In this document: positions 36,604 through 64,000 of the stretch, piece after piece
Numbering within the stretch: the first letter of the stretch is position 1
How the letters are laid out: each line of letters opens with the position of its first letter
DNA from: a virus
Virus record (IMG/VR): IMGVR_UViG_3300028883_000041
Location: 1 to 64,000 of that record
Strand: one strand, 5' to 3'
Length of the DNA: 64,000 nt
Program-made: the position numbers and the translations under genes
The notes under the pieces: generated by a model
Databases searched by the model: none
Told to the model about the DNA's origin: nothing
The model's input: only the letters and a program-made list of their open reading frames with translations

Positions 36604-38226
36604 TTACCAATCGTAATTTTCTGTTATAGAATACAGAGCTATTGATGAGGTATTTCCTACATTGACTGTATTAGCTTCTATTTTGACCCTATATTGTCTT
36701 GTAGAACTAACTACTGGAGTAACTGCAACTTCTAATGTCCAGTATTCTGTTAACGTTTCATCAGCATCACAAGCTTCACAATTATGAGTGTCAGAACCAC
36801 AAGAAGTCCAAGAACCTAAAGTAGGACTGCTATCTCTGTATTGTAAAGTCATAGTAATGCTTTGACTTCCTAACCAAGTTTCAGTTAATTCATTATACCA
36901 ACCAATAGTAATACATTTCCCTCTTAAATCGAGTTGACTACAACCTTCAGATATATTTATAGGTAAATAAATTATATTCTCATGAGTTCCTTGAGACCAA
37001 CTTTCAGCTAAATGATTATGATATGTAGCATCATCCCAATCAAAATTAGCAGTATCTCCAGTCGCATTAAGATAATTCTCAAATGTATGAGTTCTCTTTC
37101 TTGTTTCAGTAACTGTCAAATCATTGACTGTAACATCTTTAAGATTAGCATCCCCAGCGTTATCTACATAATAGGTTGTACCACCAGCAAAATTGACTTG
37201 ACCAGTTACACTGAGAGCACCAGTAACATCAAGCGTTTCTGCTACAGTACCACTACCAGTTATATCTACATCATGAACTGTAGTTTTTCCAGTAACATCT
37301 AAAGTCTCAGTAACAGTTCCGCTACCTCCTATGACTAAATCATCTACTGTAGTTAATCCAGTTACATCGAGAGTTTCTGCAATAGTACCAGACCCACCTA
37401 TTACAATATCATCCACTGTGGTTAATCCAGTGATGTCTAAAGTCTCTGCTATTGTACCGCTACCACCAATAACTAAATCATCAACGGTTGTAAGACCAGT
37501 TACATCTAACGTCTCTGCTATGGTTCCACTTCCTCCAACAACTAAATCATCTATAGTTCCAATTTTGGTTACGGTTAAATTGTCTGGAACAGTAATAGTT
37601 CCAGATGTCATTGTTAAAAGGACTTTCCCTTTATAATCTTTAACTCTCATAGACTCTTCGTTTAATGATATCCATTCATTAGCTCTAACTTCTGGATAAT
37701 CATCACTATGAAGATTAGTTACAGCAGATACGCCACTGGCTGCATCTCTGGTTATTAACGCTATTGGTAATACATTATCTGGTATTTCAGCATCAGAACC
37801 ACTCTCCCAAACATAAAATACTTCTCCACTTTCATCTCTGATATTACCAACACTGTCGGTAATACTATCAGCAGCTTCATTAACGTAAATACCTACTATT
37901 CTCTCACCAGCTACTGTTGTTTCTTGATATAAATCTGTAACAAGAATATTAGTTGTTCCACTTGTGAACCACCATCTCCCATTTACTAAAGCTGCACCAG
38001 ATGATATATCGAAAGAAGTTCCAGCACCACTGCTGATACCAAGACCCCATCTAACTCTTGATTGTGGACCTAAATCTAACATATCTTCTATAGTTCTTTG
38101 AGCATTGGTAAGTATAGACCTTTCATTTCCAGAAGCATTCCACTGCATATCTTCTATTACTATACCTCCACCGTCTTGAACATTTGATTGAGTTATATGT
38201 CTTTTACTAATTGATTCTTTTGCCAT
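36604..38226 (-). CDS. Tail fibre-like protein with 23-aa repeats
   Basis: Last gene of baseplate module; GGSGTIAETLDVTGLTTVDDLVI repeats. Confidence 0.7.
   Translation of the reverse strand: MAKESISKRHITQSNVQDGGGIVIEDMQWNASGNERSILTNAQRTIEDMLDLGPQSRVRWGLGISSGAGTSFDISSGAALVNGRWWFTSGTTNILVTDLYQETTVAGERIVGIYVNEAADSITDSVGNIRDESGEVFYVWESGSDAEIPDNVLPIALITRDAASGVSAVTNLHSDDYPEVRANEWISLNEESMRVKDYKGKVLLTMTSGTITVPDNLTVTKIGTIDDLVVGGSGTIAETLDVTGLTTVDDLVIGGSGTIAETLDITGLTTVDDIVIGGSGTIAETLDVTGLTTVDDLVIGGSGTVTETLDVTGKTTVHDVDITGSGTVAETLDVTGALSVTGQVNFAGGTTYYVDNAGDANLKDVTVNDLTVTETRKRTHTFENYLNATGDTANFDWDDATYHNHLAESWSQGTHENIIYLPINISEGCSQLDLRGKCITIGWYNELTETWLGSQSITMTLQYRDSSPTLGSWTSCGSDTHNCEACDADETLTEYWTLEVAVTPVVSSTRQYRVKIEANTVNVGNTSSIALYSITENYDW
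37220..37560 (-). repeat. About five 69-bp (23-aa) coding repeats
   Basis: Repeated DDLVIGGSGTIAETLDVTGLTTV units with synonymous divergence. Confidence 0.85.
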
Positions 38227-38227
38227 T

Positions 38228-38926
38228 TTATCTCACTTCTACTTTTATTCTAAATTTAATGCCTAAAGGCTTTACTAAGTTTACTACTTGTCTAAGTAAT
38301 AATCTTTTTTCTGTTTGGTTCCAGTATTCGTATCCACGAGTGTCTGTAATATCATACGTTCCACTGATTAAATATATTGTTATATCAAACGCTTCTGCAT
38401 CAGAATTTGTAGACCAATAACTGTAATGAACTGTTTCATCTCTGGGACCACTTGCTATGGTACTCCATAAAGACACACCAGCATCATTATAATAATATAT
38501 CGTTCCATCTTGAGATGGGTCTTCGATACGGATGTTTGTGGTAGTTTGCCAAGTTTCACTTTGGAAGGCACCACTACCTATGTAATGATAAATTGCTCGT
38601 TTAATACTGTCTTCATTTCCTCCTCCTTCAAACTCAGACCAATATTTTTCTGCTCTTGTAGATAAGTTTGTAGTTGTTTCTTGAGGGAATTTAGTCATAC
38701 CCCAATACAATATGTTATCTTCAAGAGGTTGCCCAACAGCATTGATAAGTTCTCTATCTTCATCTCTGATATCATGATAATTCTTCAATGTATCATAAAC
38801 TTGCATGATTGCTAAGAATAATCTGTGAGCATTACTATCATCATCTTTGAAAAAAGCAGACGGATAATATTGATACGGACCACTGCCAATCAGTTCTCCA
38901 AATGTTTTTTCATATGCTGTTGTCAT
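38228..38926 (-). CDS. Baseplate wedge protein (P2 gpI-like)
   Basis: Follows baseplate J; AVGQPLE...GGGNEDSIKRAI...VNLVKPLGIKF. Confidence 0.65.
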   Translation of the reverse strand: MTTAYEKTFGELIGSGPYQYYPSAFFKDDDSNAHRLFLAIMQVYDTLKNYHDIRDEDRELINAVGQPLEDNILYWGMTKFPQETTTNLSTRAEKYWSEFEGGGNEDSIKRAIYHYIGSGAFQSETWQTTTNIRIEDPSQDGTIYYYNDAGVSLWSTIASGPRDETVHYSYWSTNSDAEAFDITIYLISGTYDITDTRGYEYWNQTEKRLLLRQVVNLVKPLGIKFRIKVEVR

Positions 38927-38931
38927 TTATA

Positions 38932-41247
38932 TCATTCCTTTGCTGAGTTAGTAAATACAATATCATATAATATTGCTACTTCTGACTTATAAATCACGTT
39001 ATCAATTGTAGCATTATTAGTTCCACTTATAGGCATCATCACTGAAAATTTAGCATGGTTAGTGTTAAGAGCCCAAGCTGCTGGACCAGCTTCTTCATCC
39101 CATACCATTGCGTATTCTCCAGTCCATGGAACATTACCATCTGTATCAGTACCTACATAAGTATTAGAACCGCTGAAAGCCGAACCAGATATCACTACCC
39201 AATGTTTGGCTGTTGGGTCTGCTAATGTTAATCTACTTGCAAGTTCTACATAGATGTTTTGAGCTGTAGTTGTAGTTAAAGTATGACTTCCGCTTTCTAA
39301 AGCACTTCCAGAAGGACCAGCATCTGTTCCAGAAAATATATAAACATCAAGAGCATCACCAGTTGTTCCGCTGACATTAAGTAAAACTGCATCAATGTCT
39401 GTATAATCATAGTTCTCATAATTGAAGATAAGAGTATCTGTTCCACTTGTAAGATATGGGTCAGCAGAACCAGAACTTCCAGAAGTAATTGTAATAGTTG
39501 TCCCATCATGAGTTGAATAAAAGTCTTGAGCATATAATGGGTCTCTAATCCATACACCATCATTGTCTTGTTTAGCACGAAAAACTGTTGGTGTAGCTCT
39601 TGATACTTGAGATATTTGTGTTCCACTCATAGTAACTGCACCAGCACCAGAATAAGTAAAAATATCTTTATAAGATTTAGTTCCCATTTGGAATTGGTGT
39701 GCATATGAAGCAGTTCCACTTGTTTGTAAATCTATGCTATAAGTTAAACCATATGGTGTGTAAGAATAGGTAGAAATATCAAAATCATCAATATCTAAAG
39801 CATAGACACCATTAATTCCCATTCCTTCTTCTATGATTTGTGAATAAACTACATCCTCTCCAACTTTAAGAGTATCGATATAATCATCTATAGCATTCTC
39901 TACAGATGTATTTAGGGTTGTTCTATTAGCCCACCAATCACTATCTGGTGTTAAATCTATTTCTAAATAGACCCATTTTAACATAGGTTGGTAAATTTGA
40001 TATCTTGTTCCTACTGGTCTTTTCGATGATACCGTATCTTCTACAGTATCAATCAACGCACTATTGGTTATAAGTTTGCTATCTCCTACAACAAACACAT
40101 GAATTTGATTAGCAGCGATATAAGGTTTGTTTTCTAAATCATAGACTTTACAATCAGAAATTCCATCTATATCTTCTACTGCTGCTTCTATTGCACTGTA
40201 AGTTGCAGACCCTTGTTTCTTTGAGGCTCTATATATTCTTGTTCTCAGCTGCTCATCAGTTTCTTGGTCTGCACCATTATTAAATAGATTTGTTGAACCT
40301 AAATGAGTTGATGGATTACTGCAAGTTAAATCAGATACTTGTGTAGCTAATGATGTGTCTGTCCAAATTCTATTTATAGTTGTTGGAGCAACATTATATG
40401 ATTTACCAGTTGCTACTGCTCTAACTTCTACTGCTTCTGTTGCACCACTTGCTATATCTACTTCTACTAAAGGTTCATAGACTAATGACCTATCTGCTAT
40501 AGAACATCTATATGAAGTAGTTACTGTAGTATCACTACCAGAATTAGTAACATATACATATCCAGTAGATTTGGTTGCAGCAGTTCTGGTTAATCCCCAT
40601 GGATAAGCCAGTTCATCTAAAGCATCTCCAGTTGCTGTTCTAACAAAACTGTTCTTGAAAATAGTATAATTATTACTATCTAATTCATGAAGATAACTTG
40701 CTATTGCTTCTACTAATGATGTGACAACGGTTCCGTCTGAAAAATTATTTAAGCTTGATTGAACAGTGCTATCATAAACTTTGTATGTTACCTTAAATAT
40801 AGAACCATCTTTAGGTCTATAACCAGAAGCATTGTTCCATTTTATAGCATTAAATACATAATCCCCATCATAAACTGAAGTATCTTGATTGATTGTTTGT
40901 TCAGTTCCAGACCAATACATATAATAATTAATTGTTGGTTCATCATTTTCTACAGCTCCACTCATTGCTGCTGAACCTTCTGCTATTTGTCCTCTACTAC
41001 CTTCTGTCCAAGCAGAAATACCATTAAATGTTCCAGTTGGAGGAACCCAATTTCCATCTTCATCTGTTCCTTCAACAGAAATAATTTCAACAACATTAGG
41101 TGTGGTAGTAGTTGAACCACTAAGAACATAAGTAGCAGTATTCTGGTCAAAGGTATATTGCTCTCTTTCTATCCTAACTATACCATCTCTCATCTGTTCA
41201 ATAATCTGATTTTTTATTTCTGTAGTAGTTTTAGTTTCATAACTCAT
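38932..41247 (-). CDS. Baseplate J-like wedge protein
   Basis: TATGDALDELAYPWGLTRTAATKSTG, GADQETDEQLRTRI, KRPVGT, LKVGEDV. Confidence 0.9.
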   Translation of the reverse strand: MSYETKTTTEIKNQIIEQMRDGIVRIEREQYTFDQNTATYVLSGSTTTTPNVVEIISVEGTDEDGNWVPPTGTFNGISAWTEGSRGQIAEGSAAMSGAVENDEPTINYYMYWSGTEQTINQDTSVYDGDYVFNAIKWNNASGYRPKDGSIFKVTYKVYDSTVQSSLNNFSDGTVVTSLVEAIASYLHELDSNNYTIFKNSFVRTATGDALDELAYPWGLTRTAATKSTGYVYVTNSGSDTTVTTSYRCSIADRSLVYEPLVEVDIASGATEAVEVRAVATGKSYNVAPTTINRIWTDTSLATQVSDLTCSNPSTHLGSTNLFNNGADQETDEQLRTRIYRASKKQGSATYSAIEAAVEDIDGISDCKVYDLENKPYIAANQIHVFVVGDSKLITNSALIDTVEDTVSSKRPVGTRYQIYQPMLKWVYLEIDLTPDSDWWANRTTLNTSVENAIDDYIDTLKVGEDVVYSQIIEEGMGINGVYALDIDDFDISTYSYTPYGLTYSIDLQTSGTASYAHQFQMGTKSYKDIFTYSGAGAVTMSGTQISQVSRATPTVFRAKQDNDGVWIRDPLYAQDFYSTHDGTTITITSGSSGSADPYLTSGTDTLIFNYENYDYTDIDAVLLNVSGTTGDALDVYIFSGTDAGPSGSALESGSHTLTTTTAQNIYVELASRLTLADPTAKHWVVISGSAFSGSNTYVGTDTDGNVPWTGEYAMVWDEEAGPAAWALNTNHAKFSVMMPISGTNNATIDNVIYKSEVAILYDIVFTNSAKE

Positions 41248-41696: not shown

Positions 41697-41739
41697 CTGT
41701 TATGGTAATTATATAAAGCAATATAATAACTTTATGCTT

Positions 41740-41976
41740 CTAAGGAACAACCTCTTCATAATTATACATGACATTCAAATATCCTAAACCAGCAGATATA
41801 CTAAACCCAGATACTTCATCATATCTGTTAATAATATGGTCTAATTGGTTATCTGTATATGTACCATCTATCCTTAAGAGAATAACATCTGTTCCGCTGG
41901 GATATGCTTTCCCATCAACCCCTTGGGTTGCAGCTAAATCGTTAATATAATCAACTATTTCTTGTAAAGTTGCCAT
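41740..41976 (-). CDS. Small protein, single copy of the MATL domain
   Basis: Start at MATLQEIVDY with TATA upstream; paralogue of 42433-42906. Confidence 0.75.
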   Translation of the reverse strand: MATLQEIVDYINDLAATQGVDGKAYPSGTDVILLRIDGTYTDNQLDHIINRYDEVSGFSISAGLGYLNVMYNYEEVVP

Positions 41977-42014
41977 GATAAAAAAGTAGAAAGAGGGATA
42001 TAAGAACTTTATGC

Positions 42015-42392
42015 TTAGAGGATATCCAAGTATCTCTTCCATTTTTTCTTGACGACTGGTTGAGATGTATAATCTAACTTAGTCTCTCTGTCTGTTATGA
42101 ATACTATGTCTGATAATAAATCACCAACAAACTCTAACTCCATATCACATTCCCCACAATCACAAGCAAAGGTATAATGAAGGTCTCCTCTTGCTTCTGG
42201 ACCTCTTAACTTTCCAGTCCATTCTTCTGGGTCATATTTAACAGATTTCATATTGAGTTCTTTTTCGTTGCTACCTACTATTCGTATTCCAGTTCTTAAG
42301 TTTCCCACAAATTCAAGATATCTACCACAACCACACTTACACATACAGTAATAGCTTCTATCTTCTGGTATAATTTCAACTTCTTCTGACAT
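42015..42392 (-). CDS. Protein with two CxCG(E)C...LEFVG repeats
   Basis: Start at MSEEV behind AAAAGGTTTAAATA (42415-42428). Confidence 0.7.
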   Translation of the reverse strand: MSEEVEIIPEDRSYYCMCKCGCGRYLEFVGNLRTGIRIVGSNEKELNMKSVKYDPEEWTGKLRGPEARGDLHYTFACDCGECDMELEFVGDLLSDIVFITDRETKLDYTSQPVVKKKWKRYLDIL

Positions 42393-42432
42393 GAATAAAA
42401 AAAGGAAGGGAAGATATTTAAACCTTTTGACA

Positions 42433-42906
42433 CTATGAACCAGATAATGTTTCGTCATAGAGATAGTAGATTACAATTGGTCCATCACCTTCATAGAGAG
42501 TGAAAGTGGTTATCTCATCTGGATAATGATTGATAAGGTGTTCAAGACCAGTTTTATTATATTGACCAATAAATCTAATCTTAACATTCTCATCATCTGG
42601 TGTCCAAACCATAGCCTCTATCTTATCATTATTATCTATCAAATTCTGAACATAATCAACGATATCTCCTATAGTGTTACTACCAGAAGTATAAGGATAA
42701 ATCAAGTCTAACCATCCCCTAATACTTTGAACAGCATAACTATATATCTCTGAGTATTGGTTGATAAGCCAATCTAATTGACCTTTACTATAACTTCCTT
42801 TAGAAGTAATTCTGATATTACTACCAGTCCATAGTCCTATGGCTTCTAAATCTTGAGCCTTTATCAAGTTTTGAACAGTTGTTTCTATTTCGCCTAATGT
42901 TGCCAT
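42433..42906 (-). CDS. Protein with two tandem MATL domains
   Basis: TLGEIETTVQNLI / TIGDIVDYVQNLI; QLDWLINQY / GLEHLINHY. Confidence 0.75.
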   Translation of the reverse strand: MATLGEIETTVQNLIKAQDLEAIGLWTGSNIRITSKGSYSKGQLDWLINQYSEIYSYAVQSIRGWLDLIYPYTSGSNTIGDIVDYVQNLIDNNDKIEAMVWTPDDENVKIRFIGQYNKTGLEHLINHYPDEITTFTLYEGDGPIVIYYLYDETLSGS

Positions 42907-42914
42907 TTAATCAC

Positions 42915-45764
42915 CTAACTATAATAATATTCACACAACGGAGCTTTACAGTCTAAATCGTTTGCATTGGTACAGATGAAATCCAATCTAAGATGTACCC
43001 AATCATAAGCACTAACGTCTGTAGTTGTCCAACCTATATCTGTTCTAAGACTGTATTCTATACCAGTATTGTAATTATTCAATGCTGTTTGACTGTCTAA
43101 CAGAGTACTGGTTCTACCACTATGAGCGTAGACATATACTCGGTCCCATTCATCACCATTATCAGCATCAAGAAGATTGACTAAGAAATCGTATATCTGT
43201 AATTCTAAAGTTCCTTCTCCTCTAACAGTTGGTAGAGGCACTACGCCTACAGCTATAAAGTCTTGAGCACCTACGTTAGATATAGTCATAGCTGAAGAGT
43301 TCCATCTCCAATCATCATAATATCCAGCTGCTGTATTACCATTCATCATGATAGGTATCTTATGTCTGTCAGTAGATTTGGAAGACCAACCTATGACTTT
43401 AGATGCTCCTCTACTAATAGACCCATCACTTGTAGATAAGTTTCCTTCTATCCACAATTCATCTATCGCTGCACCAGAAGCACCTATACTGTAACTATCA
43501 TCAGTATCTACGAGAATATCTCCACCTATGGTTGTTGTGCCTCCTATGGTGACGTTTCCAGTGACATCTAAAGTCTCACCTATAGTTCCAGACCCACCTA
43601 CAACTAAGTCATCCACGGTAGCCTCACCATCAACAACTAAGGTTCCAAAACCTCCTTCTCCAGTAACTTCTAAGTCTTCTGTTACAGAAGCAGAAGTACC
43701 AACAGACAAACCAGCGGCTGTAGAAATATTTCCAGTCACATCCAGTGTTTCAGCCACAGTTCCAGAACCACCAATGACCAAATCATCCACCGTAGTTAAA
43801 CCAGTTACATCTAAGGTTTCAGCAATGGTACCGCTTCCTCCTATGGTTATATCATCGACTGTGGTTGAACCACTCATGGTTGATGTTCCAGAAACGATAA
43901 GATTACCAGCAACTGTCGCATCCGTACCATCATCGAAAAGGATACTATCAGTTATATCTTTAGCTGTTCCACTTTCCCATTTGGTAAGATAATTATCTGT
44001 ATGACTTGTCCCTTGAACTACATCTCCAGAACCGCTTCCAGCAGCACCAGAAACTGCTGATGGTTCCCATTTACTGTTAGCTTCTACCCAAACAAGAGAG
44101 TCACCATCACTTGGAGACCCAGCATCTACATCATCTAATTCGTTTAAAACTATACCGCTTGTTGCACCACTAAAAGCAACGGTTCCACTAAAGACTGTTG
44201 AACCACTGAAAGCCCAATCTCCAGTAACTATCTCGTTCTGAGCTAAGGATGCGTATTGTGGATGGTCATCATCTGATAACCCAGCTAAATCTCCGTGGTC
44301 CGTAACTGGAACAACAGTAAATTGTGTATCAAGAGGACTGAGAATAAGGTCTATATTGGAAGCATCTCGTTCTATGATGACTTTACCAACAAGTAACCCA
44401 AAATCTCTTAACAAAGGAGGAGGAGTTGGTATTGCAGATGCTTCTGCTTCTCCTAATTTATTATAATCATCTTGACCATATTGAACATGTAAACTACCGT
44501 CTTGTAAAACATAAACTAAATGAACACCATAATCATTACTACCAACTGTTCCTAAAGTTCCGTCTCCATCATCATAATTAGTATTACTTATCTGTGCTTG
44601 GTCAGTAACTTCTGTCCAACCACCGCCATTAGCCCTATACCAATAACTAAATCTATCACCATTATTTGTATTTAGAGCACTGATAGTCTCTCTATTATGA
44701 GCACAATATAAGACCCCAGCAGTTAATGAAAGATATCGTTCTCCTTCTTCTGCTAAACTCAATCCACTTGCTCGTTCAAAGCCATGTATTTCAAAGTCTC
44801 TATAACATGCCTTAGTCATATAGTCAGTGATATCTTGACCTACATTATAGATGTAAAGAGTTGTTCCGTCTCTATACACTCTTCCAATAACTATTTCTGT
44901 ATGAAGGTCTAATGAAGTAATATCTACTGTTGCATCAACTTCTGGTGACCCACTACTATAAGACAAATAAATCCAATTGGTATTGTTATCTGTTAATGAT
45001 ACACTATCATCCTCAGCCCAATCAAAGAACACATTACTTCCTATATCACTATCTGTTGTTTTGATGATACCAGTTCCAGAGCCAACAGTAGCTGAACCAT
45101 CACCATTATCACTTATAGTACCACCAGTGATAAATCCAGCACTTTGAGTATTGTTCCACCAGTCTTCTAAAGTCTTATAAGTAGAACCAGAAATGATACT
45201 ATGATTGATTTGTTCATCATCTAATTCAAATGATGAAACAGCCATAGATTGTAACTCTCCACTATCTTCAAAGAGAATATTATCTGTAAGAGCAGCTGCA
45301 TCAATAGTATCAACTACCAGTTTTCCTCCTACTGTGATAGTATCATCACCAGCATTCTGTGTTACAATACTGTCTGCTAATTCGTTAGCAGCACCACTCC
45401 ACATAGGGATAGTTCTTATTGTTCCAGAACCACCTACACCGTAGTAAGTTCCAGAACCCCACGCTTCATAAGGTATGGCTACTCCAGATATGATAACGAA
45501 TATATTATTATCATCTGCTCTGAACCCATATTTTGTTCCATCTACTATAGTATCTTTAACATCACCTATAGTTCCACTTCCAAACCCCAACATGGCTTTG
45601 GCTGCATCAAATTCTACATAACCGCTGTTATTAGTCCATGTTTTATTAGTTACTGTTCCACTTACTAAATCAACATCATATCCATCTGTATCAACATACA
45701 ATACAGTATAACAATCACTTGAACCACTTACTAAATTATCAGAACCTATATAATATGTCGCCAT
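42915..45764 (-). CDS. Large tail fibre / virion surface protein, SG[ST]-rich
   Basis: Acidic, Gly/Ser/Thr-rich; DHGDLAGLSDDDHPQY and LNELDDVD fibre-type motifs; same 23-aa repeat as the 36604 gene. Confidence 0.75.
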   Translation of the reverse strand: MATYYIGSDNLVSGSSDCYTVLYVDTDGYDVDLVSGTVTNKTWTNNSGYVEFDAAKAMLGFGSGTIGDVKDTIVDGTKYGFRADDNNIFVIISGVAIPYEAWGSGTYYGVGGSGTIRTIPMWSGAANELADSIVTQNAGDDTITVGGKLVVDTIDAAALTDNILFEDSGELQSMAVSSFELDDEQINHSIISGSTYKTLEDWWNNTQSAGFITGGTISDNGDGSATVGSGTGIIKTTDSDIGSNVFFDWAEDDSVSLTDNNTNWIYLSYSSGSPEVDATVDITSLDLHTEIVIGRVYRDGTTLYIYNVGQDITDYMTKACYRDFEIHGFERASGLSLAEEGERYLSLTAGVLYCAHNRETISALNTNNGDRFSYWYRANGGGWTEVTDQAQISNTNYDDGDGTLGTVGSNDYGVHLVYVLQDGSLHVQYGQDDYNKLGEAEASAIPTPPPLLRDFGLLVGKVIIERDASNIDLILSPLDTQFTVVPVTDHGDLAGLSDDDHPQYASLAQNEIVTGDWAFSGSTVFSGTVAFSGATSGIVLNELDDVDAGSPSDGDSLVWVEANSKWEPSAVSGAAGSGSGDVVQGTSHTDNYLTKWESGTAKDITDSILFDDGTDATVAGNLIVSGTSTMSGSTTVDDITIGGSGTIAETLDVTGLTTVDDLVIGGSGTVAETLDVTGNISTAAGLSVGTSASVTEDLEVTGEGGFGTLVVDGEATVDDLVVGGSGTIGETLDVTGNVTIGGTTTIGGDILVDTDDSYSIGASGAAIDELWIEGNLSTSDGSISRGASKVIGWSSKSTDRHKIPIMMNGNTAAGYYDDWRWNSSAMTISNVGAQDFIAVGVVPLPTVRGEGTLELQIYDFLVNLLDADNGDEWDRVYVYAHSGRTSTLLDSQTALNNYNTGIEYSLRTDIGWTTTDVSAYDWVHLRLDFICTNANDLDCKAPLCEYYYS
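43550..43870 (-). repeat. 23-aa coding repeats shared with the 36604-38226 gene
   Basis: VDDITIGGSGTIAETLDVTGLTTVDDLVIGGSGTVAETLDVTG. Confidence 0.8.
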
Positions 45765-50234: not shown

Positions 50235-50236
50235 TT

Positions 50237-52738: not shown

Positions 52739-52776
52739 TATGAATAAAAAAAGGATAAGAAGATTAAAAATCTTTC

Positions 52777-54690: not shown

Positions 54691-54695
54691 TATTA

Positions 54696-55442
54696 TCAAC
54701 TTCCACTCTCTGTACCAGACCAAGAAAGTGTTCCGCTCTCGGTATCAACACTTTCTAAGACCCCAGAACTGGTTTGATAGACTTCTATAGGAACTTCTCC
54801 TACAAGATAACCATCTGAACCACTTCCAGTTGGAGGAATAAACCTTACTTCAGTTGTAATCAATAAATCAAGATATCTACGATAGACCATGGTCGCACCA
54901 TTATGATGAGCTACATCTTTAATAAATCTATCAGCATCATCATATCCTATAAGGTCACTACTAACAGTTTTAACTTGTTTAATACCTAAATCATAAAGAG
55001 TATTAGACTGTGGAGACTTATACCAATTAAACAGATTATCTATTTTACCAGACAAAGAGTCTCTCATCCATGGGTCCTTAGCCCAAGAGTCACATCTGAC
55101 AATGTAGATTTTTTCATGACCGTATACTGTATCATATGAACCAGAAGAAGCAACCCCACCACCACTATTTACATATTCAAAAAGAAAGTTACCTATATAC
55201 TCACTCATCTCTCTTTGCCCTTGGACACTAACTACAATAGTAGGAAGTTCCATATTCTCTGCTGTAGGATAATCACCATAACAATTAATTGTTGTTTCTG
55301 TACCAGAAGTACCTAATGATATAGTTCCAATATTAGTCCTTATGAAGTCAACTATATGTGCTTTAAGAGTATCTGTATCAAATAAATAACCATCTTTAGA
55401 CGATAATACTGAACCGCTATAACTTTCCCATGTCCAAGTCAT
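54696..55442 (-). CDS. Tail terminator / neck protein
   Basis: Upstream of sheath; YPTAENMELPTIVV, CDSWAKD...RDSL. Confidence 0.6.
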   Translation of the reverse strand: MTWTWESYSGSVLSSKDGYLFDTDTLKAHIVDFIRTNIGTISLGTSGTETTINCYGDYPTAENMELPTIVVSVQGQREMSEYIGNFLFEYVNSGGGVASSGSYDTVYGHEKIYIVRCDSWAKDPWMRDSLSGKIDNLFNWYKSPQSNTLYDLGIKQVKTVSSDLIGYDDADRFIKDVAHHNGATMVYRRYLDLLITTEVRFIPPTGSGSDGYLVGEVPIEVYQTSSGVLESVDTESGTLSWSGTESGS

Positions 55443-56923: not shown

Positions 56924-56952
56924 ATAATAAAAAGAAAAAGGAGTAAAAAAAG

Positions 56953-57303
56953 TTATTGTTTGTCTTTAGGCACAAGTTTATCTTCGATATCTTGTTTATC
57001 AAATTCAGTTACATCTTCAAAGTTGTTATTTGCTGAGTAGTGTTTAGGTAACAATCCTATGAAATCGTCATCCCATACCACATCTTGAGCATGACCTACA
57101 ACACGAGTAAAACCGAGAACTACTTGTTCTCTTATCCATTCACCTTGATGTAAATCAAACTGTCTTTGTAACTTTATATGTTGAACACCATTAAGGTCTT
57201 CTATACCAACAAATTGCATGAGTTTTACAATTCTTTGGTCTAAACCAACATCATCCAACTCTTCAGTTTCTTCTTCTAACTCTTCAAAATCATCCTCTGT
57301 CAT
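56953..57303 (-). CDS. Acidic hypothetical protein
   Basis: Coupled to the GT4 gene. Confidence 0.65.
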   Translation of the reverse strand: MTEDDFEELEEETEELDDVGLDQRIVKLMQFVGIEDLNGVQHIKLQRQFDLHQGEWIREQVVLGFTRVVGHAQDVVWDDDFIGLLPKHYSANNNFEDVTEFDKQDIEDKLVPKDKQ

Positions 57304-58417
57304 CAGTAATCACATCCGCAAGTTTCTTGGCTGCTGATTTCCAAGTCCATTTCTTGACATCTTTTAGCCCTTGAACTGACCTCTTCTTTCTTCCTTCAAC
57401 ATCATCAACAACTTTTCTCATTATATTACGAATATTCTTTATTGAAGGTTTAGCCCAATAAAGCCCTTGGTTTCTATCGTAAGGACCTCTACCATCAGTG
57501 ATATCCATTGTTTCTGGTTTAATGATGTAGGAGTTCTTAGTATTCATATATTCCAATTGACCACCAAACTTTTGTGTGATACATGGAACACCACAAGCCA
57601 TAGATTGAATATAGGGTAATCCCCAACTCTCACCTTTGCTTGGTAATATGAACGCATTAGCAGAGTTATATAATCTTCTCATATTAGGTTCAGTTAGCAT
57701 CTGACCATTGATTACAATTTTTGGAGGGTTCTTATTCTTGAATTGAAAGGTTCTGGTTTTGATAGCATTAGTTATTCCTAACATAGTTGAGAAATTATTA
57801 TCCATACCATATGTTTTTAACATTAACACTACTTTATCATCTCCAGTAAATTCTTTAAGATAAGCATCTACAAGTTCTTCAAACCCTTTTCGTTTAATCC
57901 ACTGACCTACAGCCAAAAATACGAAGTCATCACCAAAGTCAAATAATTTGTCTTTATCTGGATAGAATATAGAAGTATCTATACCATGAGGAACTATATG
58001 AATTGGTCTGGCATCTGGACCTTTTTCTGTTATGGCTCTTTCTATAGAGTCTTTACAAAACTTAGTATTTGTTATGAACTCATCATAAAGGGTGAGCTCT
58101 TTCTTCCATAGAGGAGGTAAATCAAGTAATTCCCAAACAAACATGAGTATGTTTCTATTGTGGTCTGGAGGAGACCTATCAAATACTACTGGAGTTCCAT
58201 ATCTTATATAAGGAACTGTTTTATCAGAAGTCTTAGCAAACATATCTTGGAATATCGCTGCTTGGTCTGCTGGTAATCTAATTATTAAATCATCCATTTT
58301 TCTTTCTTGAAGATGAACATCTAATCCTTCTTCATGAAGACCTAACACCATTTTTCTGGCTGCATAAGCATAACCAGAAGGAGATAATACTGTTGTTTCT
58401 ATTCTTACATCAACCAT
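57290..58417 (-). CDS. GT4 family glycosyltransferase
   Basis: SGYAYAAR, VPHGID, RKGFEELV, LPSKGESWGLPYIQSMACGVPCI. Confidence 0.92.
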   Translation of the reverse strand: MVDVRIETTVLSPSGYAYAARKMVLGLHEEGLDVHLQERKMDDLIIRLPADQAAIFQDMFAKTSDKTVPYIRYGTPVVFDRSPPDHNRNILMFVWELLDLPPLWKKELTLYDEFITNTKFCKDSIERAITEKGPDARPIHIVPHGIDTSIFYPDKDKLFDFGDDFVFLAVGQWIKRKGFEELVDAYLKEFTGDDKVVLMLKTYGMDNNFSTMLGITNAIKTRTFQFKNKNPPKIVINGQMLTEPNMRRLYNSANAFILPSKGESWGLPYIQSMACGVPCITQKFGGQLEYMNTKNSYIIKPETMDITDGRGPYDRNQGLYWAKPSIKNIRNIMRKVVDDVEGRKKRSVQGLKDVKKWTWKSAAKKLADVITDDRG

Positions 58418-59749
58418 TTACATCACCAACTCTATATTGGTATTAACTTTTTCAAATAAGTCAATCCACATCTTATTTACTACCGTCCAATCATAATGAC
58501 TGACTGCCCAATCACGAGCATTTTTACCATGTAGTTTTCGTAGTTCTTCATCTTTCCAATATTTCTGGAAAGCTTGAGCCATCTTCTTAACATCTATCCA
58601 AGCCTTTCTAACTCCACATCTTTCCATATAAGCAGTTACATAAGGAACAGCAATTCCTCTTTGTTCTTCTTTAGGAACAACTTCTTCATTATCACCAAGA
58701 AGTAAAAACTCTTCTGTGGTTGTATAATTGGTTGCTACTGTTGGAAGACCACAAGCCATGCCTTCTACTATAGGAATTCCAAATCCTTCTCCACCAGTTG
58801 ATAGAGCATGAACGTCAAAACAATTATATAACAACGATAAATCTTGTGGGGGTATCCCTTCTAAGAAATTATATTTTTTTCTGGATTGATTTGATGCTGG
58901 AGTAATGATAACGTTCTCTCCTATTCCTCTACATTCAATCTGCTCTAAGAAGAAATAATCGTGGTTAGCATCCCCTATATATAATGGGTCTTTAGCATCT
59001 AAATGAAGATAGAGATAACAAGTTTCTTTCTTCAACTTTTTCTCTTCTTTACTTCCAGCATTCATAAACATCCTAAATGCTTCAAGTAATCTCATATGAT
59101 GTTTTCGTTTATTCAATCTGGCTACGCAACCTATAATGAACATATCTTTAGGGTCTGTTTTAAACTTCATACCATATTCACCAAAGAATGCTTGTCTTGC
59201 TGCTAATTTGTTTATAGGACTAAATATAGATGTATTTATACCATGGGGTACATATTCTGCATCAATTTTAAGTTGTTCTTTAGTAAGTTTTTGACCATAT
59301 TTACTCATTGCTATTGGAACATCAACAGCCATTAGAACTGACTCTATCATACTGTTGATTGGGTCTCCATCAAGAGGATAATATAACATCCAAAAAGGTC
59401 TTGGTTGTCTTGCTAATACATCAACCATATGAGCATCCCCTTGAGTAAAGAGAACATCTGGAGCTATTTCATGAAATACGTCTTGATAACTATCCTTACC
59501 AAACATAGCATTTCCTCTCACTCCATGAACTTTATAGTTAAATCCAGAAATTGGAGGATTGCCTCTTGTTTGCCATCCTAAATAATGAGTATCCCAATTG
59601 AAGAACTTAGATACTGTATTAGCTATAGTTCCACATTGTATAGCAAACCCAGTAGGATAGTAAGGGCTATCAGAAGCAAAAAGTATAGTTGGTCTTCTTC
59701 TATTCAACTTAATTTCGGTTTTTGTCTCTATATCTACTTTTTTTGACAT
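58418..59749 (-). CDS. GT4 family glycosyltransferase
   Basis: PTGFA, VPHGIN, ARLNKRK, STGGEGFGIPIVEGMACGLP. Confidence 0.92.
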   Translation of the reverse strand: MSKKVDIETKTEIKLNRRRPTILFASDSPYYPTGFAIQCGTIANTVSKFFNWDTHYLGWQTRGNPPISGFNYKVHGVRGNAMFGKDSYQDVFHEIAPDVLFTQGDAHMVDVLARQPRPFWMLYYPLDGDPINSMIESVLMAVDVPIAMSKYGQKLTKEQLKIDAEYVPHGINTSIFSPINKLAARQAFFGEYGMKFKTDPKDMFIIGCVARLNKRKHHMRLLEAFRMFMNAGSKEEKKLKKETCYLYLHLDAKDPLYIGDANHDYFFLEQIECRGIGENVIITPASNQSRKKYNFLEGIPPQDLSLLYNCFDVHALSTGGEGFGIPIVEGMACGLPTVATNYTTTEEFLLLGDNEEVVPKEEQRGIAVPYVTAYMERCGVRKAWIDVKKMAQAFQKYWKDEELRKLHGKNARDWAVSHYDWTVVNKMWIDLFEKVNTNIELVM

Positions 59750-59793
59750 GTATATATATAAACACCTAATCTTATTAAATCTTTTGATGGCTT

Positions 59794-60330
59794 CTAACTC
59801 ATTGGCTTTGTTGGGTCAGTCTCACCAGTCTCTGAATAAGGCTTTCTAACAATCTTTAATAAAGTATAAACTTTCTGACCAAATGAACCGTATTTTGTTT
59901 CGTTTAGCATTATATCATATTCGTACCTTGTATAATTGGTATCAATAGGAAAAATGATTATGTCACCAACTGCAAAGTTATCGTGTTCCCAGCCATAAGT
60001 CCATAACCGATGAGTATAACGTTGAACTAAACCAGCTGGTGTCACATAATCACCTACTCCACTTCTTCCAGTAGGAGGTATTTGCTCTACGTAAGCTTTT
60101 ACTTTTCGTTCAGATGATGTCCCCTCAGTAAAGATAAATCCAGACCCATTACATACAGAACAAGTAGAATTAGGACGACCATATAAACTATTCCAACAAG
60201 TACATTTAGTAGCACTTTTTTTAGACCTATGAATGACATCTTGTCCTACATTAGTTAAGATATGTCTCATATAATAGTCATCAATAATAGGAACATGAGG
60301 TGTTCCCATAGTCCATTGTCTAAATGCCAT
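59794..60330 (-). CDS. Putative head-closure / neck protein with Zn finger
   Basis: Start MAFRQW; KCTC...CSVCNGSGF; position in morphogenesis module. Confidence 0.55.
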   Translation of the reverse strand: MAFRQWTMGTPHVPIIDDYYMRHILTNVGQDVIHRSKKSATKCTCWNSLYGRPNSTCSVCNGSGFIFTEGTSSERKVKAYVEQIPPTGRSGVGDYVTPAGLVQRYTHRLWTYGWEHDNFAVGDIIIFPIDTNYTRYEYDIMLNETKYGSFGQKVYTLLKIVRKPYSETGETDPTKPMS

Positions 60331-60332
60331 AG

Positions 60333-61190
60333 TTAAACACCATCTCCAGCAAGGTTCATCCCTTGTACCCAACCACTATAAATGGTCTGGTCGCTTGTTA
60401 CATATATCCTACCACTATCAACAAAGATTGCTGCTTGATTAAGAGTAACTCTGTTAGAACTAAGAGGAAAGCTTCTGGCATAATAAGGTTTAGAACCAGA
60501 ACTCCTATCGATAATAACGACTGGAGCTTGGTCATATGCCAATTTCAGTATGTTCTTTAAATTATTAACTTTATCTTCATACATTCTAAACAGTTCTCCC
60601 ATAGACATACCTTCTCCCCAAAGTTTGGTTTGAACTCCTAATTCTCCAAGATTATAACTAAACCCTCCTTGGATAGCATTAGAACTGTTTAATGCTAATA
60701 TCGAATATTTGACAGCAATAGCATATACTAATAAAATAGCAAGTTGTTCAACGGTATCAGTTGTTGTTAAATCATAATCCCATGTCATATCAAATTCATG
60801 ATTGACTTCTTGTTTTGCTGACTCTAATTCCATCAATATTTGACTATTAGTAAGTCCAGCTTCATAACGATAGGTACATCTTACCTTCTCACCTATCACA
60901 ACATTTGCACCAGAAGCAAGAATAACTTGTCCAGTGTTCTCAGTAAAATCAGAACCACTGGTTGTATTATAATAATTACTACCAGAATGTGTCAAATCTG
61001 TATGTTCCCAAATTCCAGCAACACCTCCAAGGGGAACATTAAAAACATATATCTCATACCCACTTGAACCAGAAAAAACTACTTGTAATTCATCTTCAAT
61101 AGTCGGACTTTGCACTACCCCAGCTTGTGTTAACATATCCCTTACGTTGCTAATATGGTCAGCGTTTTCTGTCGTGCTTAAGAAACTCAT
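60333..61190 (-). CDS. Putative head-tail adaptor
   Basis: GFSYNLGELGVQ...YEDKVNNL adaptor-like tail; SG[ST] motifs; shares promoter with sheath. Confidence 0.5.
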   Translation of the reverse strand: MSFLSTTENADHISNVRDMLTQAGVVQSPTIEDELQVVFSGSSGYEIYVFNVPLGGVAGIWEHTDLTHSGSNYYNTTSGSDFTENTGQVILASGANVVIGEKVRCTYRYEAGLTNSQILMELESAKQEVNHEFDMTWDYDLTTTDTVEQLAILLVYAIAVKYSILALNSSNAIQGGFSYNLGELGVQTKLWGEGMSMGELFRMYEDKVNNLKNILKLAYDQAPVVIIDRSSGSKPYYARSFPLSSNRVTLNQAAIFVDSGRIYVTSDQTIYSGWVQGMNLAGDGV

Positions 61191-61229
61191 TAAGCTAACT
61201 ACTACATAATGAGTAAAAAAGGGTTTTGG

Positions 61230-62213
61230 TTAAATTCTTGTTTTTCCGTTGACTTCAAAACCACAGTTTTTGAACGTAACTTTTCCACCATTTAACCAAG
61301 TAATAACCTTATCAAAATCATTTTCATCAACATTCATGACAGATACCTTATCATTAGCATCAATCATAGCAAGACCTCTTCCAGCAATAATAAAATTCCA
61401 TGGTCTAATATCTGTAGCATGTTCATATTTCAAATCTCTAAGTAACTTTTCTATGTTAGCAACATATGGAAAAGTTCCATTGAACACCATAAAAGTATAA
61501 AGATTTATACCTTTAATCCATACTCTTTTTCTACCATCTTGATGATGATAATGTTTATGTTTCCATGAAGACTCAATACCAACCTTACTTCTTAGATGAG
61601 GAGGACAGTTGTAATATCTTTTCTTCATTCCATTCTTAATAGTAGTTATCATATAGATAGGTCTTTTTCCCCCTTTGGTAACATGAGAGTCTCCTTCTCC
61701 TATTTGTTCTACTTTACCATAGAATAAATCTGGATTTATCTTAACAACTTTATGAGGATTACAAGCATTGGTAGTATTAGGAAGCTCAATAATTAGCCTA
61801 TCTCCAAGAGCAGACATTTCATTAACAACATCATTAGGGTCTCCATCTATATGATGAACTACACTCATTGCTAACACTACATCAAAATGTTCTATCTCAG
61901 ACAAAACTTTAATTTTGTATAAATCCATATGGGTTTGTAACAATATGATATTATTCAAATCGTTTCTTACAGCAAGATTTTGTAATTGTTTTCCATAGAA
62001 ATTTGGAGACTCAATCATAACTACAGAACTCATTGGATAATCTTCTGCTATCCTAAATGAGAAGTAACCAAGATTAGCACCTATGTCTAACACAGTAAAA
62101 CTCCTCTCAAACTTATCAAGAACCTTTTTTATTACTTGATACCTTTTCTCACACTCTCTTACACCTTTCTTTTCCAATTTTCCTTTAACCCATATATCTT
62201 GATATTGTTCCAT
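61230..62213 (-). CDS. WbdD-like SAM methyltransferase with C-terminal kinase-like motifs
   Basis: YQDIW...RECEKR, VLDIGANLGYFS, FDVVLAMSVVHHI, HATDIRPWNF...MID. Confidence 0.75.
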   Translation of the reverse strand: MEQYQDIWVKGKLEKKGVRECEKRYQVIKKVLDKFERSFTVLDIGANLGYFSFRIAEDYPMSSVVMIESPNFYGKQLQNLAVRNDLNNIILLQTHMDLYKIKVLSEIEHFDVVLAMSVVHHIDGDPNDVVNEMSALGDRLIIELPNTTNACNPHKVVKINPDLFYGKVEQIGEGDSHVTKGGKRPIYMITTIKNGMKKRYYNCPPHLRSKVGIESSWKHKHYHHQDGRKRVWIKGINLYTFMVFNGTFPYVANIEKLLRDLKYEHATDIRPWNFIIAGRGLAMIDANDKVSVMNVDENDFDKVITWLNGGKVTFKNCGFEVNGKTRI

Positions 62214-62971
62214 TATATTCCTAACTCCTTATACCATGTTTTTATGTTCTCACCAGCAATAATATCTGCTTTTGTTCTCATTTCATCAGTCCAGTTTTCT
62301 ATTGAAGGATAGATATACTTATTAGCCCAGCTATCATATTTCTTTATAATCAAATCACTGAAATCATAATCTATACCTATAAAAATGTTAAATAATAACA
62401 TATCAGTGTAAGGAGGATTGAACATATCTTCCATCTTTAATAACATCATAGGTATAGTCTTTGCAAACTCTTGAGCAACATTTAAATATTTATTCCATAT
62501 CCAAAGAGCTTTCATAAATGCTTGTTTTTTAGTTCTATCTCCTTTTTTCCACCACTGTGTTGCTGGGTCATCTTTAAACAGAAACGGACTTAATCTATCT
62601 GTTACTATACTTTCTTCTGTGTTCTTAGTAGTATATCTTGTAGCAAATGAACGGACAAAATCTACTGGATTTCTTATGATATAAACAATCTTAGATTCTG
62701 GATAACAATCATGAATAATATCAACGATTGGTGTAAAAGCCCAGTTACTCTCAAAGTAATGTTCTGCATTTCCTCTTATCTTTTCTGTTCTATCCTTAAA
62801 GATTTTAGATAACTCATCTCTTGTTATCTCTCCTTTGTAATATGAAACTATATTATGTCTCAGTCTTGGATGTGGTTCATGTTTTCCAAGATAATGAGTG
62901 TTCTTATTAATGTTATGTGCTAACCAACCAGTACCAGTTCTACCAGTCGATACCACAAATACTTCTACCAT
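62213..62971 (-). CDS. PAPS-dependent sulfotransferase-like protein
   Basis: VFVVSTGRTGTGWL (5'-PSB loop), HEP, KIVYIIRNPVDFVRS (3'-PB motif). Confidence 0.82.
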   Translation of the reverse strand: MVEVFVVSTGRTGTGWLAHNINKNTHYLGKHEPHPRLRHNIVSYYKGEITRDELSKIFKDRTEKIRGNAEHYFESNWAFTPIVDIIHDCYPESKIVYIIRNPVDFVRSFATRYTTKNTEESIVTDRLSPFLFKDDPATQWWKKGDRTKKQAFMKALWIWNKYLNVAQEFAKTIPMMLLKMEDMFNPPYTDMLLFNIFIGIDYDFSDLIIKKYDSWANKYIYPSIENWTDEMRTKADIIAGENIKTWYKELGI

Positions 62972-62990
62972 TTTTTACACCTTTAATTTA

Positions 62991-63644
62991 TTATTTTACG
63001 AATACTTCAATCATAGACAACCTATTTAGAAGGTGAGGACTATCTACCCAATATGGTTTCATATCAACTATTCTATAATCATGTCCCCACTTGTGACAGA
63101 TTTCTTTCATATCTTTTTCAGAATAAAAGAAACTTAAAGGAGGTTTAAAAAAGCCCCATGGTTTGGTCTTTTTACCTATCCACACAGTAACAAATACTTT
63201 TGTTGTAGGCTTCATAATCTTCCATAGATTCTGGATAAATTCTTCAAACATAGCAATAGGATTGTGGTTCAATACAGACACCGCTATAATGTAATCTACT
63301 TTTGGTAGATAATCAAAGCCGAAATCAGTATTAATATAAAACTCTGCTATCTCTTGCTTATTTCCTACTAATACCTTTCCAGCTTCTATGGCTTCTGGAC
63401 ATATATCTACACCTACATAACTTCTACAACCATAGTCATATACCTTATCTAATAATGGTAAAGTCCCACAACCCAAATCTAACAGAGAGTGTTCTGGTTT
63501 AAAACCATTATCTTTTAACAACTGTAAAATCTTCTTAGAACCAACATCCCATGAATAAGTTGATGTTCCAGCAGACTTGGGGTCTATTGCAACTTGCTCC
63601 TTCATGAATTCAGCATAATTATTTATGTGCTCATCATGTGTCAT
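62991..63644 (-). CDS. Class I SAM-dependent methyltransferase
   Basis: LLDLGCG, YVGVDI, DYIIAVSVLNH. Confidence 0.85.
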   Translation of the reverse strand: MTHDEHINNYAEFMKEQVAIDPKSAGTSTYSWDVGSKKILQLLKDNGFKPEHSLLDLGCGTLPLLDKVYDYGCRSYVGVDICPEAIEAGKVLVGNKQEIAEFYINTDFGFDYLPKVDYIIAVSVLNHNPIAMFEEFIQNLWKIMKPTTKVFVTVWIGKKTKPWGFFKPPLSFFYSEKDMKEICHKWGHDYRIVDMKPYWVDSPHLLNRLSMIEVFVK

Positions 63645-63682
63645 GATAACATTTAAATATTTCTAACTTTATTAATCTTTTG

Positions 63683-64000
63683 ATGACTAAACTTAAGATA
63701 GCAGTACCAGCTATACATAAATCACGATTAAGACAAATAGCACGAACTGGTCATGAGATATATTACTTTGATGACGATAGAGAAGTAGAAAAGGGTTATA
63801 ACTCAATATTCGATGAGTTCACCAAAGAATTAAACAACATAGAATTCATAGCAAAAAACGATTTTGTTAATAACCCAACAAAATATGATTTAATAATATT
63901 GCCTAATCAAGCATCTATGCATGAGTTTAGTAGTTATAGTAATTTGCCTAAAGCTTTTATTTGGACTAATGTATGTGATATAAATGATAAGGTAAAAAAG
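63683..64000 (+). CDS. Partial ORF, possible glycosyltransferase N-terminus
   Basis: MTKLKIAV...ARTGHEIYYF...YDLIIL, open to the window end; GT-B-like start. Confidence 0.5.
   Translation, partial: MTKLKIAVPAIHKSRLRQIARTGHEIYYFDDDREVEKGYNSIFDEFTKELNNIEFIAKNDFVNNPTKYDLIILPNQASMHEFSSYSNLPKAFIWTNVCDINDKVKK

Follow-up and report, generated by a model that had tools for sequence, protein, structure and literature searches.

A Ser-Gly-[Ser/Thr/Ala] motif on outer virion proteins of an uncultured contractile-tailed virus, a candidate tag for virus-encoded O-glycosylation

Introduction

The mycobacteriophages Che8, Corndog and Myrna add sugars to the proteins of their capsids and tail tubes with glycosyltransferases (GTs) of their own, and in these phages the modification has been measured (Freeman et al. 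2023, via PMC12363180). Here we analyse an uncultured virus, known from a metagenomic contig of 85,587 bp in IMG/VR (record IMGVR_UViG_3300028883_000041, hereafter G000), in which the tripeptide Ser-Gly-[Ser/Thr/Ala], written SG[STA], is strongly over-represented in outer virion proteins and may be the tag of such a system. The window that we analysed is the first 64 kb of this contig; it holds a contractile-tail module and, next to it, two adjacent genes for GTs of family GT4, which we call GT4a and GT4b.

Glycosylation sites in the mycobacteriophages are C-terminal Ser/Thr stretches of capsid and tail-tube subunits. In G000, by contrast, the capsid protein (one site) and the tube proteins (none) lack motif enrichment, and the sites are dispersed, internal and located in other proteins. 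The likeness, as far as the relayed account describes those phages, is that tailed viruses modify their virion proteins in the cytoplasm with soluble GTs, sometimes together with methyltransferases, that they encode themselves; that account reports glycosylation as a measurement, whereas for G000 we infer it.

Chloroviruses offer a second virus-encoded system, with capsid glycans that are N-linked at atypical sites. The chlorovirus enzyme B736L (PBCV NY-2A, 3oy2/3oy7) resembles the GTs of G000 as a virus-encoded retaining enzyme of the GT-B fold, and its virus glycosylates a structural protein of its own independently of the host pathway. The identity, however, is about 20-25% and covers part of the protein only, and we know of neither a gene pair nor an S-G-[ST] tag described for the chloroviruses.

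Among bacterial systems, GtfA-GtfB is a two-subunit GT-B transferase that adds O-linked N-acetylglucosamine to many Ser residues of Gram-positive serine-rich-repeat adhesins in the cytoplasm. Like the genes of G000, it is an adjacent pair of GT-B/GT4 type with one catalytic and one degenerate partner, to be compared with the EX7E motif of GT4b, the E...Q of GT4a and the predicted binding of the two. Its substrates are long disordered Ser-rich repeats, whereas the sites in G000 lie in dispersed turns of folded beta proteins, and no GtfA or GtfB chain is found among the PDB sequence hits of GT4a and GT4b. Another bacterial system, acting on a beta-rich adhesin, has a dedicated cytoplasmic GT encoded beside the substrate gene, about 19 Ser/Thr sites and a recognition tied to local structure; it differs in its enzyme family, in having no sequence consensus where G000 has a sharp tripeptide, and in serving something other than a virion. 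In eukaryotes, the xylosyltransferase site for glycosaminoglycan (GAG) attachment has a Ser-Gly core in acidic flanks, with Ser as the acceptor, and is served by GT14 and linker GTs in the Golgi lumen. The motif of G000 shares the Ser-Gly core with its Ser, but its flanks are depleted in Asp and Glu, and GT14 and linker GTs were not found in this virus.

To our knowledge, virus-directed glycosylation of tailed particles has been chemically shown in a few mycobacteriophages only, and the process has no known short sequon. An S-G-[ST] sequon is likewise not in the list given by a review of bacterial O-glycosylation.

Results

An ordered, Ser-specific motif excess in virion proteins

The initial annotation of the window had proposed that SG[STA] marks outer virion proteins for a proteoglycan-like, sulfated and methylated glycan coat. 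The SG counts on which it relied, for baseplate J, the sheath and a 248-aa neck protein, were all reproduced, as was the richness of the fibres and the spike. Its low counts hold as well, with 0-2 SG and 0-1 SG[STA] in each of the tube proteins, terminase, PolB and the 1192-aa primase-helicase.

The annotation had called for a comparison with composition-shuffled controls, and under this check ten pooled virion proteins contain 83 SG[STA] where 10.2 are expected (z 23.8), which is about eightfold over expectation. Shuffling within blocks of 8, 12, 20 or 40 residues, which keeps the local richness in Ser, Gly and Thr, gives 11.8-15.8 expected sites and z 18-22 (for the 8-residue blocks, 15.8 and z 18). 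Neither global nor local composition is thus the cause, as the excess persists under both kinds of shuffle.

The order of the residues matters, since the reversed GS[STA] is not significant in the local shuffles. Also at expectation in the ten proteins are TG[STA], AG[STA], SS[STA], SD[STA], SG[DE] and SG[VILMF]. Among the 400 dipeptides, SG is the most over-represented in the virion set (z 11) and lies at expectation in the remaining window proteins; DG and NG show no enrichment in the virion set. The residue that follows SG is Ser in 30 cases, Thr in 33 and Ala in 14, together 77 of 100. The sequon of the archaeal oligosaccharyltransferase AglB, N-x-S/T, was considered as well and set aside, with 33 occurrences against 40.9 expected in the same proteins (z -1.5).

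Several trivial causes were examined and rejected. Tandem repetition accounts for little, with seven of the 83 sites falling within a 23-aa fibre repeat, and a shared domain family is not the explanation either, because an all-against-all BLASTP comparison connects the two fibres only. A cause at the DNA level is excluded by reading frame and codon choice: 106 of 108 (AGY|TCT)GGN words stand in frame 0, and the AGY and TCT families of Ser codons are both used. The excess is therefore robust, ordered, Ser-specific and situated at the amino-acid level.

Motif-bearing and contrast proteins of the tail module

G000 has a GC content of 35% and is estimated by CheckV to be about 60% complete. Its contractile-tail module occupies 36604-56923 on the minus strand, as do all window features located below. 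The module runs from the fibres through Baseplate_J, a VgrG-like spike, a tape-measure/hub-like protein, two tube-like proteins and the sheath to the 248-aa protein. Upstream of it, along the direction of transcription, lie the two GT4 genes, a 192-aa structural protein, a 285-aa protein and an island of methyltransferase, sulfotransferase and methyltransferase genes. Past the window end follow two paralogous genes, a weak GT2-like match, a nucleoside diphosphate (NDP)-sugar epimerase/dehydratase and a cupin, and after the cupin an HK97-type capsid protein, two proteins of 205 and 402 aa, in this order, and the portal. The initial assignment of Baseplate_J, sheath, two GT4s, sulfotransferase and two methyltransferases was borne out by Pfam.

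The Baseplate J-like wedge protein (771 aa, 38932-41247; Pfam PF04865, E 4.6e-32) has 19 SG, 18 of them SG[STA], where 1.6 are expected (z 13 in within-protein shuffles), and 13 of the 18 lie in its clade-specific C-terminal part, residues 500-771. The contractile tail sheath (431 aa, 53362-54657; Pfam PF17482) has six SG, every one of which is SG[ST], against 1.1 expected. Ten SG and seven SG[STA], where 0.7 are expected, are found in the 248-aa neck-position protein (54696-55442), three of them within its last 13 residues, and its C-terminal end reads ...ESGTLSWSGTESGS. Leads from the ESM Atlas for this protein are Phage_tail_terminator_9, E217_gp29 and T4 gp15-like folds at a template modelling (TM) score of about 0.56, and it is probably a tail terminator or a sheath stabiliser.

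The 540-aa tail fibre (36604-38226) has 13 SG and 10 SG[STA] against 1.2 expected, and the 949-aa fibre (42915-45764) has 28 SG and 21 SG[STA] against 3.0. The two share a 23-aa tandem repeat with a consensus of about VDDLVIGGSGT[IV]AETLDVTG, present in five copies in the former (...GGSGT[IV]AETLDVT...) and three in the latter. Their repeat segments are 42-50% identical over 120-190 residues, which suggests an exchange of modules between the two fibre genes. The 305-aa central spike, a VgrG-type beta-helix of the DUF2345-like kind (45764-46681), carries 10 SG and 6 SG[STA] against 1.3 expected; its match to Pfam PF10106 (E 4.4e-7) is just under the cut-off, and it also matches phrog_9992 (baseplate assembly).

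Two further proteins of the module carry the motif in smaller numbers. A 232-aa baseplate- or fibre-associated protein (38228-38926), for which Pfam and further family searches returned no family match, has four SG and two SG[STA] against 0.2 expected, and a 157-aa small protein of the baseplate region (42433-42906) has two SG, both SG[STA] and one of them C-terminal. A 100-aa open reading frame (ORF) at 41740-42042 is a paralogue of the latter by BLASTP.

On the head side, a 285-aa protein (60333-61190), conserved in the stretch that separates the GT4 pair from the capsid gene and without a match in Pfam, PHROG or NCBIfam, has eight SG and five SG[STA] against 0.6 expected. Beyond the window and next to the capsid gene, the 205-aa protein (genome positions 69308-69925) has six SG, all SG[STA], against 0.6 expected. 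The ESM Atlas places it among phage cement proteins with scores of 0.95-0.96, so that it looks like a capsid cement protein, which fits an exposed position.

The contrast proteins lie in the same module. The 1012-aa tape-measure/hub-like protein (46683-49721) has eight SG and two SG[STA] against 0.8 expected, in line with the earlier remark that SG in the hub is mostly not followed by Ser or Thr. The two tube-like proteins of 194 and 192 aa (52154-53355), assigned by position only as they follow the sheath gene directly, have no SG[STA].

The same proteins are enriched in relatives while the sites turn over

Two related viruses were taken whole for comparison, G001 of 79 kb, which has terminal repeats, and G002 of 80 kb. 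The identical orthologue groups are enriched in all three viruses, at 26-65% identity. In the order G000/G001/G002, SG[STA] counts are 18/14/12 for baseplate J, 6/6/6 for the sheath, 7/5/7 for the putative terminator (the 248-aa protein), 10/7/9 for the 540-aa fibre, 21/11/9 for the 949-aa fibre, 2/2/5 for the 232-aa protein, 5/3/5 for the 285-aa protein and 6/5/6 for the cement-like protein. Each of the tube-like, tape-measure-like, portal, capsid, terminase, polymerase, primase-helicase and GT proteins has 0-1 SG[STA] across orthologues, the count being zero for the tape-measure/hub-like orthologue of G001 and for the tube-like orthologues. The earlier claim that the motif belongs to outer virion proteins is upheld across the three genomes, in which tube, tape-measure-like, portal and replication proteins lack enrichment.

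Counts are kept far better than positions. Alignment of the orthologue trios finds 21 sites in all three viruses, 19 in two and 86 in a single lineage. Eight sites of baseplate J and three of the 285-aa protein are conserved in all three. Orthologues of the two fibres, at about 30% identity, have sites at mostly differing positions, nearly all of them lineage-specific, and yet keep their density.

Sheath homologues extend this picture. Among 1.84 billion representative proteins, 26 were found, of which the nearer ones (P0006-P0010, P0012, P0013, P0017 and P0018) have 5-8 SG[STA] where about one is expected, and the farther ones have 0-2, with P0014, P0020, P0021 and P0025 free of the motif.

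The excess is restricted to one clade

A profile search with baseplate J gave 61 IMG/VR loci, 58 of them distant and mostly tail modules of 80-90-kb viruses. The 793 ORFs of these 58 loci contain 399 SG[STA] where 360 are expected (ratio 1.1), and even their Ser-, Gly- and Thr-rich ORFs contain 178 where 138 are expected (ratio 1.3). A single ORF of the distant loci passes p < 1e-3, and none of the ORFs at five archaeal genome loci is significant for SG[STA]. As the 793 control ORFs lie near expectation, a general property of tail proteins was rejected as the source of the motif. The expectation that distant homologues from viruses without GT4 genes would not be enriched was likewise borne out, and IMG/VR scans based on GT4b and on the sheath returned the same clade only.

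The only control ORF with a comparable excess is one of 506 aa (L029:7425-8945) with 15 SG and 10 SG[STA] against 2.1 expected. It comes from a 12.9-kb fragment of an unrelated virus with 59% GC, 16% complete, and no GT4 lies within the fragment.

The motif occupies uncharged strand-end turns

We analysed the flanks of 196 non-redundant sites from G000, G001 and G002. Lys and Arg are nearly absent from -5 to +7 around the motif, at 0.0-0.6 times expectation. Asp and Glu stand at 0.0 times expectation at -2 and 0.4 times at -1, and reach at most 1.3 times downstream, while hydrophobic residues are 1.3-1.5 times over expectation at -5 to -1, and position 0 is Ser and not Thr. These flanks speak against the initial suggestion of Ser-Gly in an acidic context: the acidic residues adjacent on the N-terminal side are the depleted ones (0.0-0.4 times at -2 and -1), and basic residues are depleted around the motif too.

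The AlphaFold2 (AF2) model of the sheath has a predicted local distance difference test score (pLDDT) of 80 and a predicted TM score of 0.86, and in Foldseek it matches phage sheaths and those of contractile injection systems with probability 1.00. Its SG[ST] sites, at residues 37, 81, 121, 190, 226 and 244, are in loops or just past strands, all within the non-conserved N-terminal 57% of the protein and none in the conserved C-terminal domain. From what is known of two-domain sheaths, we take this N-terminal region to be the outer domain. For baseplate J the AF2 model is poor, with a pLDDT of 56 overall and below 50 in the C-terminal domain, the region that holds 13 of the 18 sites.

At two conserved strand-end turns, motif-rich sheaths have L-S-G-[ST] and [LFY]-S-G-[ST], where motif-poor sheaths have L-D-G-V and [WF]-D-G-V. 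The exchange at the same turns argues, on the evidence of the alignment, that the motif is an overlay on pre-existing Gly turns.

A pair of GT4 genes is inherited with the motif

GT4a (375 aa, 57290-58417; Pfam PF00534, E 2.8e-13) and GT4b (443 aa, 58418-59749; PF00534, E 2.8e-15) are the only glyco-genes common to all motif-rich genomes, being present in G000, G001 and G002 (3/3), always between the head genes and the neck/sheath genes. Two GT4-sized genes also stand directly upstream of the sheath block in loci L077 and L076, and L079 has one complete GT4 there, preceded by an ORF cut at the contig end; for the pair of L077 and the gene of L079 the assignment was confirmed by Pfam. GT4a is conserved in G001, G002, L077, L076 and L079, and the GT4b-type gene is restricted in IMG/VR to this clade. 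By comparison, none of 20 motif-poor distant relatives, 14 of them at least 90% complete, has a PF00534 match above the cut-off. Between the window and L077, GT4b is 45% identical, and it is more conserved across the wider clade than the sheath (about 33%).

GT4b has the canonical EX7E motif (EGFGIPIVE). At the same position GT4a has E...Q (GESWGLPYIQ), and this is kept in its orthologues. The best solved relative of both is chlorovirus B736L, 3oy2 (GT4a, E 3.6e-9; GT4b, E 3.8e-6).

The two GTs are predicted to form a heterodimer. The modelled complex has an interface score (interaction prediction score from aligned errors, ipSAE) of 0.83, while the best of three controls scores 0.02; at least 83% of contacts recur between runs, and the partner pLDDT is at least 89. 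Of 80 solved complexes 58 attain this ipSAE mark, as do 2 of 110 mismatched pairs, counts that are only rough given the custom alignments used here, and resemblance to GT-B dimers of known structure may explain part of the result.

Distant GT4b homologues occur in cultured phages. Of six such phages four were examined (Mae-JY09, phiPsal1, TJE1 and S-EIVl), with homologues at 22-26% identity. In two bacterial siphophages, Microcystis phage Mae-JY09 (L093, 9787-10971) and Pontimonas phage phiPsal1 (L094, 6979-9351), the homologue is about 26% identical and lies between the major capsid and neck/adaptor genes, a late-operon position that matches the one in the window. In phiPsal1 it is followed by an S-adenosylmethionine-dependent methyltransferase and a GT2.

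The GT4a orthologue of G002 (L084:6874-8886) is 670 aa long against 375 in G000, because about 290 aa are inserted right behind the conserved ...QSMA|C. This extra segment starts with Cys and ends ...VHN followed by Cys, and so resembles an intein in the most conserved loop. The PolB of G002 (46853-50482) is also some 280 aa longer than the PolB of the window.

The accessory glycan island is peculiar to G000

In the window, the accessory island spans 61230-63644, with a methyltransferase at 61230-62213, a sulfotransferase at 62213-62971 and a second methyltransferase at 62991-63644. Outside the window it reaches 68302, with a GT2-like match under the Pfam cut-off, the NDP-sugar epimerase/dehydratase and the cupin; its NCBIfam matches are all under their cut-offs. 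As a block it belongs to G000 only and is not found at the same place in G001 or G002. A sulfotransferase is encoded at another place in G001, whereas G002 lacks one altogether. The sulfated and methylated glycan of the initial annotation therefore finds no support in the comparison, as the genes at 61230-68302 are mostly missing in the equally motif-rich G001 and G002.

Within the island, on the opposite (plus) strand at genome positions 63680-64699 and 64690-65682, are two adjacent paralogues of 339 and 330 aa that are 36% identical; the first begins within the window. They have no match in Pfam or NCBIfam and no orthologue in G001 or G002.

Neighbouring genes, probable restriction-site avoidance and host

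Adjoining GT4b is a probable head/neck structural protein of 192 aa (59794-60372) without motif enrichment, which matches phrog_1004 ('virion structural protein', E 4.2e-6) and has a DnaJ-like CxxCxGxG, zinc-ribbon-like motif (CSVCNGSG). Its place beside the GT4 pair is kept in G001 and G002, and we see in it a possible zinc-ribbon protein of the neck or an adaptor. Farther along, beyond the window (genome positions 73892-74926), the virus encodes a protein that joins a receiver domain to an ATPase domain of histidine-kinase type (PF00072 and PF02518), and a longer orthologue of this gene is found in G001.

The words CAGG/CCTG and GATC are wholly absent from G000, G001 and G002, with 0 against about 87-270 expected for each, and CTAG is rare in G000 (5 against 269 expected). 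This points to strong restriction-site avoidance common to the clade. It leaves two traces in the proteins. The Ser before Gly is never encoded by TCA (0 of 142) although TCA makes up 21% of Ser codons, which is due to the genome-wide avoidance of CAGG and not to the motif, and the ten virion proteins have no Pro-Gly at all (0 against 8.8 expected), since avoided words would arise from CCA-GG and CCT-GG.

The host of G000 is likely archaeal, to judge from distant relatives of its baseplate J, since these are found in Bathyarchaeia and other archaeal metagenome-assembled genomes.

Discussion

We rank first, tentatively and with somewhat more doubt than confidence, the reading of S-G-[S/T/A] as a tag at which enzymes of the virus itself O-glycosylate exposed virion surfaces. 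We do so because the motif is ordered and Ser-specific, is confined to outer proteins and to the GT4 lineage, and keeps its density despite the turnover of its sites; on these grounds the data suit a tag read by an enzyme better than any trivial cause. Of the glycan coat proposed in the initial annotation, the ordered, composition-corrected excess on outer proteins stands, and the proteoglycan-like and the sulfated or methylated parts do not.

How such a system might work can be sketched, and in this full form we regard it as possible but somewhat doubtful. A short code, S-G-[S/T/A] with strand-end residues in front of it that are mostly uncharged and often hydrophobic, would be superimposed on exposed Gly turns of the sheath, the terminator, baseplate J, the spike, the fibres, the head cement protein and the 285-aa head/neck protein. 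In the late phase of infection both GT4s would act in the cytoplasm as a heterodimer, in which GT4b would be catalytic and GT4a, with its degenerate E...Q, would serve as a second enzyme or as a substrate-binding partner. Sugar would pass from a nucleotide sugar straight to the Ser of the tag, on virion proteins that are folded or assembling, with neither a lipid carrier nor an oligosaccharyltransferase involved. In G000 alone, the non-conserved island may elaborate the glycan. The resulting coat on the folded outer proteins might serve in shielding, stability or adhesion.

A number of observations weigh against O-glycosylation, and several of them favour a structural explanation of the motif instead. 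The sites are at beta-strand ends and turns in both AF2 models (that of the sheath and the poor one of baseplate J), and many fall on a Gly that is conserved in motif-poor homologues, where it stands in D-G, as a structural turn would. The major capsid protein, which has the largest exposed surface, carries a single SG[STA], and outside the virion set the viral proteins show no avoidance of the motif. The co-occurrence of motif and GT4 pair lies within one clade and thus amounts to one or two independent events; at its edge, L077 has the GT4 pair and yet only its sheath is clearly enriched, with no site in the protein at the terminator position. Both GTs are generic GT4s under every NCBIfam cut-off, so that a lipid, a polysaccharide or another molecule is conceivable as the acceptor. 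Finally, none of the four cultured phages examined for distant GT4b homologues, including the two that have them in structural modules, shows an SG[STA] excess. This last result speaks neither for nor against the link, since enzymes that are 22-26% identical can differ in the acceptor motif that they use.

The structural explanation is that S-G-[S/T/A] is a clade-specific beta-turn idiom, which ends strands in place of D-G or N-G and has nothing attached to it, while the GT4s act elsewhere. Selection against surface charge may favour such an idiom, and the GT4 targets may be host envelope glycans, a glycolipid or a polysaccharide. The depletion of Lys, Arg, Asp and Glu around the motif and the 21 sites that keep their position at 41-65% identity would both be accounted for. 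We rank the idiom as the main rival, somewhat less probable than O-glycosylation, since it leaves several features unexplained. It gives no reason for the order and the Ser specificity of the motif, with TG[STA] at expectation and DG and NG not enriched, nor for its clade restriction, when the 793 control tail-module ORFs show ratios of 1.1-1.3. Nor does it account for the lack of the motif in internal proteins that are beta-rich, the tube among them, or for the continuing appearance of new sites in fast-evolving fibres, and the conserved, late-operon GT4 pair, a heterodimer by prediction, is left without a role.

The motif might also be a tag that another enzyme reads, such as a host O-glycosylation enzyme, a kinase or some other modifier of Ser, with the GT4s extending a glycan begun by the host or being unrelated to it. 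Keeping density while positions turn over is how an enzyme-read tag behaves, the tie between motif and GT4s is indirect, and L077 has the GT4 pair with a weaker enrichment. Virion proteins of tailed viruses, however, fold and assemble in the cytoplasm, beyond the reach of membrane-bound oligosaccharyltransferases. As the AglB sequon is not enriched and no conserved kinase is found among the three viruses, a reader other than the viral GT4s appears improbable to us. Least credible by far is a proteoglycan-like coat of GAG type at acidic Ser-Gly sites, sulfated and methylated by adjacent enzymes, for although G000 has a sulfotransferase, two methyltransferases and sugar-nucleotide enzymes beside its GT4 pair, and G001 too has a sulfotransferase, acidic residues are depleted beside the motif, no GT14-, GT7-, GT31- or GT43-type enzyme was found (only GT4 and a weak GT2-like match were), and the island is missing from the equally motif-rich G001 and G002.

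Were the turn idiom to be true, it would warn against taking an excess of Ser-Gly in tail proteins as a sign of glycosylation. Should S-G-[S/T/A] indeed be a glycosylation tag of the viral GT4s, it would be the first defined sequon for cytoplasmic O-glycosylation of virions, and glycosylated virions would become predictable from sequence alone. It would also represent a minimal system of an enzyme plus a tag, and offer a fresh view of the ways in which uncultured archaeal viruses shield their particles or make them stick.

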